Positions 26,683 through 43,290 of a stretch of 64,000 bases of DNA are shown piece by piece. The notes below the pieces were generated by a model. It saw nothing but the letters and a program-made list of their open reading frames with translations. It was not told where the DNA came from and did not search any database. Source of the stretch: Pristiophorus japonicus. Lineage: Eukaryota. The position numbers and the translations under genes are program-made. Each line of letters starts with the position of its first letter. Position 1 is the first letter of the stretch. Where the stretch lies: assembly GCF_044704955.1 (NCBI RefSeq), contig NC_092008.1:11842001-11906000 (forward strand), in the 5' to 3' direction.

Positions 26683-26952
26683 ATGGGGGGTGTTTTGGTG
26701 ACTGAAGTGCTGTGTGACACCAGGACTGCAGCCCTGGGGAGATGCATTAATCCCTGTCCTCGGTCCATTGATCCTCTTCTAACTTCAACCTTCTTCCTTT
26801 ACACCGTGTTCTCAATCCCTTGTCATGTATTTGGAAATTTTACATCGACACAATGCCAAAATCATCTAAAATAAATGTATTTAATTAATTATAATTTATA
26901 ACATCAGTGTGAATTAAAGTTACACTATTTTTACTCATTAAATTAATAAATC

Positions 26953-29665
26953 TTATTCTTCCTCCTCCTCCGCCTTTTTGTCGAGATCCGAAGAATCGAC
27001 CCCCACCTCTTCGTAATCCTTCTCGAGTGAGGCCATGTCCTCCCGTGCGTCCTGGAACTCCCCTTCCTCCAGCCCCTCTCCCACGTACCAGTGGACAAAG
27101 GCTCGCTTGGCGTACATCTTGTCGAATTTGAGGTTGAGGCGGGTCCAAGCCAAGGAAATGGCGGTGGTGTTGCTCAGCATACAAACAGCGCGCTGCACCT
27201 TTGCCAGATCGCCCCCTGGCACCACCGTCGGGGGCTGGTAGTTGATGCCAACCTGTGGGGGAAAGAGAATACGTTAGATTTCAGTTGCACAAAAAGAAGC
27301 TTCAAAATCACGTTTGTTGGCAGGCATTACATTTTCAGAAAGATAAATTTAGGAACGAATTTATGAGTTGAACTATTCAAAAATCTGGCCTAGGTCATTC
27401 ACTGGGACCTTCCCCAGTTTTATAGCTTCAGTTTCTGAATCAGGTCACTGTCATGAGGCTGCATTCAGGAGCAAATTCAATTTTTTATTTCATCTTTTCC
27501 GAAGTGTGCTTGATTTTCAGGAAGAAATTTTCCTTGTTTCAATGCAGGACCTCTCCTGGGACATTCAGGACTGCATTCAAGGATTGAAGCTGAGAATTCC
27601 ACCTCAAGCCTCAGCGGGAGCTCCTCTTTGGGCCAGGAATGGGGAGGGACTGTTCCTGAATGGATGGACATCTTTTGACCCGGTCTGAACAGCCGTATTG
27701 TTCACGTGGGAGATCAGGTTGTCACAGTGCATGTTTCCTCAGGGCCCCATCGATTGGACACAGAAGCCACACTTACCTTGAACCCAGTCGGGCACCAATC
27801 AACAAACTGGATCGAGCGCTTGGTCTTGATGGTGGCGATGGCTGCGTTGACATCCTTCGGCACCACGTCCCCTCGGTACAGCATGCAGCACGCCATGTAC
27901 TTGCCCTGGCGGGGGTCGCACTTCACCATCTGGTTGGCTGGCTCAAAGCATGCGTTGGTCAGCTCCGCCGTGGATAAATGCTCGTGGTAAGCCTTCTCGG
28001 CCGAAATAAGGGGCGCGTAGTTCACCAGCGGGAAGTGGATGCGGGGATAGGGGACCAGGTTGGTTTGGAACTCAGTCAGATCCACATTCAGGGCACCGTC
28101 GAACCGTAGTGACGCTGTGATGGATGACACTAACTGTGCCATGAGACGGTTGAGGTTGGTGTAGGTGGGACGCTCGATGTCAAGGTTACGCCGACACACG
28201 TCGTAAATGGCCTCGTTGTCCACCATGAAGGCGCAGTCAGAGTGCTCGAGGGTGCAGTGGGTGACCAGCACGGAGTTGTAGGGCTCGACCACCGCGGTGG
28301 AAATCTGCGGCGCAGGGTAAACGGAAAACTCCAGTTTGGATTTCTTGCCGTAGTCGACGGAGAGTCTCTCCATCAGGAGCGAAGTAAAGCCCGAGCCGGT
28401 CCCACCCCCGAAACTGTGGAAGATGAGGAAACCCTGTAGTCCTGTGCACAGGTCCGCCTGTGGGCATGAAAAGTACAACTTATTAAATGGAAGCGAGAAA
28501 TGGAATCCATCCCCAAAGGACAGTGAGTAACTGGACAGGAGCAAAGGTACAGAGTGTCCCTGGTGAGATGGGACAGTTGGAGTGGAAGAGAAGTTGGGTG
28601 GGTGGGAGTGTGCGTGGGCTGCAACAGGCGAGGAGGTAGCAGAGTATCAGGAGTGGGATAGCACTGTGGGACACGCTGGGTCAGCAGTGTGGGTGCAAGT
28701 GGGACGGGGCAGTGTGAGCCGATGCGCTGGATCTTTGGGAGCCGGTACACAACCTACCAGCTTCCGGACACGATCCAAAACCAGATCCACAATCTCCTTG
28801 CCGACCGAGCAGTGGCCCCGTGCGTAGTTATTGGCCGCATCCTCCTTGCCGGTGATGAGCTGCTCGGGGTGAAAGAGCTGTCGGTAAGTGCCGGTGCGAA
28901 CCTCATCTGGGGGCAGAGAACCGAGACTTAAGGACAGGAATACAGGACATTGCAGTAACTTTGATACATCCAGGCCACGGTGCAATGCGATTAGAGAGAG
29001 CACTGACTGACCAACCCACCAACAATCACTCCCCTTACCTATCACAGTGGGCTCCAGATCTATAAACACGGCTCGGGGAACGTGCTTGCCTGCCCCCGTC
29101 TCACTGAAAAAGGTGTTGAAGGAATCGTCGCCACCTCCGACAGTCTTGTCACTGGGCATCTGCCCATCCGGCTGGATCCCATGCTCCAGGCAATACAGCT
29201 CCCAGCAAGCGTTGCCGATCTGCACACCCGCCTGGCCAATGTGGATTGAAAGACACTCACGCTAAAGAGGGAAGATCACATGATTACTCACACAGGTAGG
29301 AGGGTAATGCTTTATACAGTCAGTGGGATTGGAAGGAGAGGGCTGTGTGGGCAGCATCGCATTGTGTTACAGTAACCTCTGGGTCCTGTCCATCTCTATA
29401 GCTTTCCCATTTCCTCTGCAAATCCTCGCTGTTTATCGCTGGTTCACCTGCTCCTTGAGGAATCCGCCATTGCTCGGGACTATCTCTCTCATTCCCGTGG
29501 ATTATCCCGGTCTCCAGCGATCCCCGTGGCTTCGAACACTTCCAGTGCATTCCCACTGTGTCAGTGCATTCTCCCCCTGGCTCCGCTTTCCCTGTGAATC
29601 CCTCTCTCTCGGTACAACACCGTCGCCCTGTGCATTTCCCCCCCCCCCCCGCTCCCACTCACCAT
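26953..29665 (-). CDS. TUBA: Alpha-tubulin, divergent isotype, copy 1 (451 aa); exons 29665-29663, 29261-29039, 28906-28758, 28457-27777, 27252-26953
   Basis: ATG|gtgagt first exon; [74 protein letters not shown]; coding exon sizes 3/223/149/681/300 nt with GT-AG introns, matching the vertebrate five-exon alpha-tubulin layout; no frameshift or premature stop. Confidence 0.97.
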
Positions 29666-29720
29666 GATCTCCGTGTATTCTCGCAGCTCCAGAGAATGTG
29701 GCGGGTGTCGCCGCTCCCGC

Positions 29721-29851
29721 TATTTATACCGCGCGGGTCAGAACGCTGCTATTCAGTCAAATCGGCCTCTGATTGGTCGGTGAGATAAAGGGCTGCGGTT
29801 GCTTGTGGAAACAGAAACACTGAAGGTTCGAAGGTGCTGAGCGCTGATTGG
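29721..29851 (-). promoter_or_regulatory. Core promoter of tubulin copy 1: TATA box and two CCAAT boxes
   Basis: TATAAATA at 29728-29721; CCAAT(CAG) at 29776-29772 and 29851-29847; GC-rich context. Confidence 0.8.
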
Positions 29852-43056: not shown

Positions 43057-43111
43057 GATCTCCGTATATTCTCGCAGCTCCAGAGAATGTGGCGGGTGTC
43101 GCCGCTCCCGC

Positions 43112-43242
43112 TATTTATACCGCGCGGGTCAGAACGCTGCTATTCAGTCAAATCGGCCTCTGATTGGTCGGTGAGATAAAGGGCTGCGGTTGCTTGTGGA
43201 AACAGAAACACTGAAGGTTCGAAGGTGCTGAGCGCTGATTGG
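43112..43242 (-). promoter_or_regulatory. Core promoter of tubulin copy 2: TATA box and two CCAAT boxes
   Basis: TATAAATA at 43119-43112; CCAAT at ~43167-43163 and ~43242-43238; appears identical to the copy 1 promoter. Confidence 0.8.
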
Positions 43243-43290
43243 TCCTTTGTGTACAAGGCGGAACATGAGGCAAGAAGTGAGCAGCTTTGA

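Follow-up and report, generated by a model that had tools for sequence, protein, structure and literature searches.

How did two nearly identical, intact alpha-tubulin genes come to lie as ~3.2-kb islands in satellite DNA, and is the island itself the unit that was copied? The window analyzed here is a stretch of 64,000 nucleotides from Pristiophorus japonicus, C34:11842001-11906000 (C34 being NC_092008.1), close to one end of a contig of 12.37 Mb (genome size, 5.9 Gb); coordinates without contig prefix are window positions, and loci elsewhere are given by their C34 positions. Copy 1 (26953-29665) and copy 2 (40362-43056) are both on the reverse strand and each contain five exons, GT-AG introns and an open frame of 451 codons; the assignment of copy 1, whose product lacks the terminal Tyr, is based on its frame, splice sites and alpha-tubulin match. 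From the start codon onward, the exons are 29663-29665, 29039-29261, 28758-28906, 27777-28457 and 26953-27252 in copy 1, and 43054-43056, 42436-42658, 42155-42303, 41174-41854 and 40362-40661 in copy 2, all on the reverse strand. The 5′ leader and promoter occupy 29666-29900 and 43057-43290 on the same strand, while the 3′ untranslated region and unique flank of copy 1 (26684-26952, reverse strand) end at the satellite junction. The junctions are at 26683/26684 and 29900/29901 for copy 1 and at 40093/40094 and 43290/43291 for copy 2. Both islands, with their intact genes and the two satellite junctions quoted by the initial annotation, were confirmed, and so was the short promoter of copy 1, in which the TATA box (29721-29728) is ~170 bp from the upstream satellite with two CCAAT boxes (29772-29776 and 29847-29851) in between. 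As also claimed there, the copies are not retrocopies, a reading that is ruled out by the four GT-AG introns kept in all eight genes compared.

Copies 1 and 2 are 95.6% identical overall and 99.3% identical in their coding sequences, with nine coding differences, one of which changes an amino acid; intron 4 is 91% identical and differs in length by 12 bp. The homologous block, 26593-30061 versus 40003-43465 (95.8% identity), reaches past the junctions into 90-160 bp of satellite, and homology therefore does not stop at them.

The two copies belong to a 1.47-Mb cluster on C34 with nine intact paralogs, in line with the expectation of the initial annotation that more than two copies exist. Queries taken from the promoter and from exons 2-3, 4 and 5, with all counts being lower bounds, gave nine intact and four broken alpha-tubulin genes at C34:10.73-12.21 Mb. 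L001, the third compact copy, is located 30 kb to the left, inverted and just outside the window, and shares 96% identity over the whole island; five further intact genes with longer introns are found at 10.73-11.46 Mb; and the ninth extends over 60 kb (12.149-12.209 Mb), with introns of 2-40 kb and an unrelated start that is TATA-less and GC-rich. Gene spans in the cluster range from 2.7 to 60 kb, and both orientations occur. The three compact copies share 98.7-99.3% coding identity and 99-100% promoter identity, and the six genes beyond them differ by 2-5% in coding sequence. One of the broken copies is frameshifted in exons 2 and 3, one has a damaged exon 4 and a 5′ half that was not found, and two are exon-5 remnants. 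Ten more copies at 6.69-8.53 Mb lost exons 2-4 through one deletion from intron 1 to intron 4, and the start codon is also gone in eight of them. Within these lower-bound counts, all close matches are on C34 except a lone exon-3 piece on C8, which rules out dispersal to many unlinked loci; a macrosatellite gene array is ruled out by spacers of 10 kb to an inferred 430 kb, mixed orientation and the wide range of gene spans. Two other alpha-tubulin clusters, on C3 and C36, are satellite-free.

The encoded protein is identified as alpha-tubulin by its N-terminal part, which matches alpha chains at 1e-48, and Lys40, the glycine-rich nucleotide loop and Glu254 can all be read from the translation. 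In a tree with ten other alpha-tubulins from C3, C17 and C36 (the frameshifted C3 locus L020 was excluded), the nine cluster genes form one clade with a support of 100/99 and are ~90% identical to the other ten over 311 residues; inside this clade, the branching order has weak support (84/82, drawn open) and is distorted by gene conversion. A terminal Tyr or Phe is absent from all nine cluster genes and present in all ten others. Copy 1 has 22 residues unseen in the ten other alpha-tubulins, nine of them at positions 385-427 in helices H11-H12, which we take from established structure to be the outer surface facing motors and MAPs, and its tail consists of basic residues followed by a glutamate run. 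The dN/dS ratios, 0.03-0.04 among the compact three and 0.02-0.30 across the 28 pairs of eight genes, point to purifying selection on the cluster genes. In contigs of three other organisms, short matches to intron 4 and to the 3′ flank were found (four runs compared over 26000-27760); relatives therefore have the gene, and the isotype is older than the species. Contigs of the same four runs also show exon 5 of other alpha-tubulins. No description of this isotype in cartilaginous fish was found in the open-access literature, and no single-copy neighbor gene for synteny was recognized among the ORFs listed of 370 filtered.

The initial annotation regarded the 3.2-kb cassette as a mobile or amplified unit, a claim at odds with the sequences beyond its edges. 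The 3′ junction is at a common position in copies 1 and 2, L001, L004, L005, L033 and the deleted copy aligned, and the 5′ junction is common to those of them with a promoter and to L008, while L002 and L006 have ~170 bp of extra unique sequence upstream. Alignment places the L001 flanks collinear with the flanks of copies 1 and 2, at 78-90% identity inside and outside satellite alike (outside it, 627 identical bases out of 737), and each of the three carries different insertions. The island is judged from these alignments not to be the unit of duplication, because old paralogs with promoters of only 72-83% identity have the same junction positions, and because the flanks continue collinearly at ~85% past the island, non-satellite parts included; moreover, both-sided satellite is found at only five of the nine intact genes, and the duplication that could be mapped measures 16 kb. 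The 85% value could partly reflect paralogous repeat copies, since divergence may be faster in satellite than in unique DNA and the flank pieces outside satellite also consist of repeats. No terminal inverted repeat was found at the island ends; together with flanks that are homologous rather than unrelated, this rules out a transposon-borne gene of the Pack-MULE kind.

Near-identity of the copies is instead likely kept by gene conversion acting on old duplicates. Every one of the 28 pairs among eight genes is 97-100% identical in intron 2, whereas promoters differ by 17-28% between subfamilies, which points to gene conversion. Against an assumed 15% background, the probability of a single difference in 132 bases is about 1e-8. 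Intron 4 is a mosaic in the eight genes, with 89-100% identity in its first half and 55-95% in its second, and identity falls 50-150 bp inside the satellite. The paralogs are located in one region and their non-coding tracts are far more alike than their flanks, as in concerted evolution.

The flanking repeat is a degenerate 15-mer. Next to the genes it forms short degenerate patches of ~470 and 600 bp at copy 1 (26182-26683 on the 3′ side and 29901-30513 on the 5′ side) and of 1300 and 460 bp at copy 2 (38787-40093 and 43291-43751, respectively), all annotated on the forward strand and broken by interspersed repeats. In the 10.2-kb spacer between the copies, 38% masks as satellite; the part between the gene-adjoining patches (30514-38786) contains further patches at 31113-32736 and 35048-35601 with interspersed repeats between them. 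Beyond copy 2, a long interrupted 15-bp satellite spacer starts at 45331-63032 (forward strand) and, by sampled tiles, reaches the long-intron paralog at its 3′ end after ~260 kb. This array and another of ~430 kb, between the genes at 10.77 and 11.21 Mb, lie between same-strand genes, and both lengths were inferred from tiles and pattern matches rather than read through.

The 15-bp satellite is confined to the tubulin cluster. An exact 50-mer of the satellite unit is matched 45 times genome-wide, in every case within C34:10.85-12.15 Mb, and a 27-mer is matched 654 times, with all of the 100 matches listed falling in the cluster. A satellite patch is absent from all 11 of the other alpha-tubulin loci examined on C3, C17 and C36, so the association of gene and satellite is not due to chance. 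Satellite orientation tracks that of the gene at 17 of the 18 nearest patches (22 sides examined, four without a patch; the copies are not independent), the exception being L006, whose nearest patch is on the opposite strand. The proposed tie between this satellite and the tubulin family is therefore upheld by both the confinement and the strand agreement. Five of the nine intact genes have satellite within 450 bp on both sides, and at the other four it is one-sided, far away or missing.

Two paralogous sites and one foreign contig bear on how the two-sided satellite arose. At L008, satellite is present upstream but not downstream, and unique sequence continues at the exact 3′ junction; together with a relic in L034, satellite-free sequence at this position was found at 2 of 100 loci. 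A contig of run X1 (organism A, another species) departs from the window at 26692, and its loose letters match the satellite-free flank, with 24 of 30 letters in register with L034 when read by eye, these 30 letters of one contig being the whole cross-species flank. The three cases point to a satellite-free 3′ flank as the ancestral state. The satellite 3′ junction was likely formed once, at a tandem-duplication breakpoint, because both paralogous sites and the contig of the other species keep the satellite-free flank. From the 5′ flank, a stretch of 415 bp that is half non-satellite is found again on the 3′ side of L001 at 86% identity and on that of copy 2 at 83% versus the L001 5′ flank (34856-35269, reverse strand, satellite plus non-satellite piece), suggesting that at least one duplication break was in or beside satellite.

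The ten deleted copies derive from one ~16-kb duplication around L001 (C34:11829521-11845357), a segment whose right end covers window positions 1-3357 and which was copied as a whole segment to C34 6.7-8.5 Mb. This is the only later duplication that could be mapped, and its ends are at a LINE and beside other minisatellites, outside the 15-bp satellite. The duplicated block subsequently increased in number along with a GPCR-bearing block, at 98-99.7% identity; both ends of the 16-kb block were seen in two of the ten copies, and for the others the comparison covered 10-kb windows or a portion of it. The LINE is presumably of the CR1 type and the receptor presumably GPR139-like. LINE-rich DNA was recognized by its reverse transcriptase in Pfam, and rhodopsin-type GPCR exons (7tm_1) form a very large family in this genome with 2098 candidates.

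Taken together, we consider it probable that the cluster grew by tandem duplication and inversion, was homogenized by conversion and came to be spaced by its own satellite, in the following order. Satellite would initially have been located upstream of a compact copy with a TATA promoter. A tandem duplication with breaks ~265 bp past the stop codon and in the upstream satellite would then have produced a copy with same-orientation satellite on both sides. Unequal exchange between these direct repeats, together with inversions, may have generated further copies at a time corresponding to ~15% flank divergence. Gene conversion would since have made the gene bodies alike again, its tracts stopping 50-150 bp into the satellite and thereby mimicking a cassette edge, and turnover of the satellite and insertion of transposons would have lengthened or shortened the spacers, which measure from 10 kb to an inferred 430 kb. 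The satellite may have had a causal role in gene duplication; after the first tandem duplication, the addition of copies by unequal exchange is plausible but inferred. As the initial annotation supposed, unequal recombination could plausibly use the direct satellite repeats that flank a gene on its two sides, while the cassette as the amplified unit is unsupported.

It is unlikely that the satellite is a mere bystander of an ordinary tandem tubulin cluster at the end of a small chromosome, a place in which any local minisatellite would expand, with duplications arising via LINEs or other repeats, although much of the surroundings would suit such a history. Of 20 blind 10-kb tiles at 10.6-12.13 Mb, tandem repeat makes up at least 99% in 15, and four tiles farther out consist of 90-100% other satellites. 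Satellites of many families account for most of distal C34, with at least ten other repeat families on the contig (21, 26, 30, 33, 37, 50, 67 bp and more), some of them adjoining the GPCR array, and other satellites take up neighboring tiles within the cluster as well as beyond it. For the 16-kb duplication, moreover, the ends coincide with a LINE and adjoin other minisatellites, and short shark chromosomes are described as rich in simple tandem repeats in the available text of PMC10620051. A bystander, however, would not be expected to be restricted to the cluster (45 of 45 matches), to track the gene strand at 17 of 18 patches or to recur with a 5′-flank piece on the 3′ side of genes, where a break in or beside satellite is indicated. 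An assembly artefact, by which two haplotypes would have been written in tandem as copies 1 and 2, is highly improbable: the repeat-rich region and the coding identity of 99.3% might invite it, but intron 4 is only 91% alike with its 12-bp length difference, the flanks carry different insertions, the third copy is inverted 30 kb away and six more genes differ by 2-5% in coding sequence, which also bears out the initial annotation where it treated the copies as more than haplotype duplicates.

Copying of the gene with short satellite arms into pre-existing patches, by non-allelic conversion or re-insertion of a circle, is unlikely as well. Such a process has been described for other gene families, namely wtf at 5S rDNA and Dox at the 359-bp satellite (PMC9562144, as far as its available text goes), and homology arms would leave near-identity that stops just inside the satellite on both sides, as observed; the copies are in both orientations, and gene-less patches related to the flanks are found nearby, some of them inverted (13560-13954, 16144-16985 and 24885-25261). 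Yet old paralogs with promoters of 72-83% identity have the same junctions, non-satellite flank is also common to the copies, and the island ends have no terminal inverted repeat. All intact copies, furthermore, are within 1.47 Mb of one contig, the ten distant copies moved within the 16-kb block, and none of the 20 blind tiles contains a tubulin piece, though 12 of them are full of the satellite family (the 15-mer or its 29-bp relative).

Purifying selection, the TATA/CCAAT promoter and the CpG-rich gene bodies suggest that these are live, tissue-restricted genes kept for dose, and the copies would likely have been kept because some tissue needs much of the isotype. Germ cells are our best guess for this tissue, at about even odds, purely by analogy with Tyr-less and divergent isotypes elsewhere. 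The marginal band of blood cells may be an alternative, given TUBA4A in platelets (PMC6374996, in its available part). The CpG observed/expected ratio of exon 4 is 0.77-0.89 in the cluster, compared with 0.32-0.71 in nine of ten other tubulins and 0.90 in the remaining one, which fits low germline methylation and GC-biased conversion alike; the deleted copies differ from L001 mainly outside CpG. A more ambitious joint reading seems quite unlikely, namely that the locus is a copy-number-variable amplicon with gains and losses by satellite recombination and a regulatory part for the satellite, expressing from open islands in heterochromatin a Tyr-less germ-cell tubulin with a remodeled motor- and MAP-binding surface, its dose set by satellite dynamics. 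The satellite is not a CCAAT-box array: an 8-kb stretch has 13 perfect CCAATCA versus 270 TCAATCA, with none in the patch on the 5′ side. C34 as the shark X is unsupported: the fourth Hox cluster, described as X-linked in the zebra shark in the part of the source available, is dispersed here and located on C37, and no C34 homeobox match was found among 150 scored of 424 candidates. Four Hox-like clusters are present in the genome and, with the LINE-rich DNA and the large GPCR family, would suggest a cartilaginous fish.

The initial annotation had proposed an undescribed system, which is not upheld: the locus is a satellite-spaced tandem family under concerted evolution, and its mechanisms are all known, although no description of the C34 tubulin cluster was found in the open-access literature. 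Its value is that of a readable vertebrate case in which a gene family and a satellite grew together, a single assembly showing the ancestral flank without satellite together with the junction, the tracts of conversion and the spacers in their expanded form. It makes testable both the driving of gene copy number by satellite direct repeats and the persistence of conserved genes under selection as small islands in satellite.

Among known systems, a chicken testis alpha-tubulin isotype is also Tyr-less. The terminal tyrosine is likewise not encoded in TUBA4A and TUBAL3 (PMC5648057 and PMC2115118, available text). Unlike the listed human tails, however, the tail here has basic residues before the glutamate run, and there are nine private changes in H11-H12. 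Tandem alpha-tubulin clusters are described in Notothenia coriiceps (an Antarctic fish), Trypanosoma and maize, and converted copies in bdelloid rotifers, in the available text of PMC3464624, and the shark cluster resembles them as a set of tandem-duplicated paralogs homogenized by conversion, but it differs in comprising one divergent Tyr-less isotype with a dedicated satellite between copies over 1.47 Mb. With wtf and Dox (1.688 satellite), for which repeat-helped expansion and non-allelic gene conversion are reported in the accessible part of PMC9562144, it shares compact genes, such conversion and, at five of its nine intact genes, the repeat close by on both sides; ectopic exchange between euchromatic satellites is described in Drosophila (PMC7919458, in part). 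The wtf and Dox genes are drive genes at many dispersed, pre-existing repeat sites, whereas a conserved tubulin with inherited junctions occupies one region here. Closer in layout are the newt histone gene clusters, which were reportedly found by Stephenson, Erba and Gall in 1981 to be separated by satellite tracts: in both cases gene units are spaced by long, variable-length tracts of one satellite, but the newt has hundreds of uniform units and the shark nine single genes of unequal age. The D4Z4/DUX4 and RS447/USP17 macrosatellites similarly place gene copies inside repetitive, likely heterochromatic DNA, but the shark cluster has no uniform head-to-tail unit, keeps its introns and varies in both spacing and orientation.

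The contig that holds the alpha-tubulin cluster, C34, also carries ten tubulin copies without exons 2-4 at 6.69-8.53 Mb (L021-L030), derived from the ~16-kb block around the third compact copy. All ten have retained the promoter, exon 1 and exon 5, and two of them, L021 and L029, keep the start codon; these two could splice exon 1 in frame to exon 5 and yield a predicted short C-terminal tubulin peptide. A rhodopsin-type GPCR exon lies at 7970-8878 (+) of the window, and its family returned 2098 candidate matches in the genome search. Because this exon matches copies at C34 5.9-6.5 Mb (98% identity) and the tubulin block has been copied to 6.7-8.5 Mb, the sequences suggest that the tubulin cluster and the GPCR array have exchanged material in both directions.

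Two cluster genes each contain a tandem duplication of the exon 5 end and 3′ UTR (L004 6250-6563 and L005 3412-3722), and L033 and L034 contain similar remnants. A lone 157-bp exon 3 copy with 90% identity occurs on contig C8 (L101 4974-5130), with no further tubulin gene part within 5 kb. Inside and between tubulin genes lie provirus-like elements (L071-L074, L007 and L080) whose ORFs resemble pol and env. Three tandem copies of a 1.2-kb LINE piece (93-96% identity) occupy window positions 18286-21985.

C34 is a mosaic of local satellites, certain of which adjoin particular gene families. Long arrays are formed by a 21-bp satellite at 7.66-7.73 Mb (L049-L056), a different 21-bp satellite at 11.50-11.68 Mb (L094-L097) and a 26-bp satellite at 11.73-11.79 Mb (L062-L068), all three unrelated. 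The 29-bp satellite at 10.98-11.20 Mb (L087-L091 and L076; 87% homogeneity) resembles a dimeric, diverged form of the 15-bp unit that spaces the tubulin genes, and the satellite patch upstream of cluster gene L008 now consists of a 44-bp unit.

Further alpha-tubulin clusters were found on C3 at 15.2-15.7 Mb (L010, L012-L014 and L018-L020, L018 being a divergent alpha-tubulin with a short tail) and on C36 at 31.9 Mb (L015-L017). Both lack the 15-bp satellite of the C34 genes and the intron preceding the last exon; the tubulin gene on C17 (L011) and the C34 genes have the fourth intron in common.
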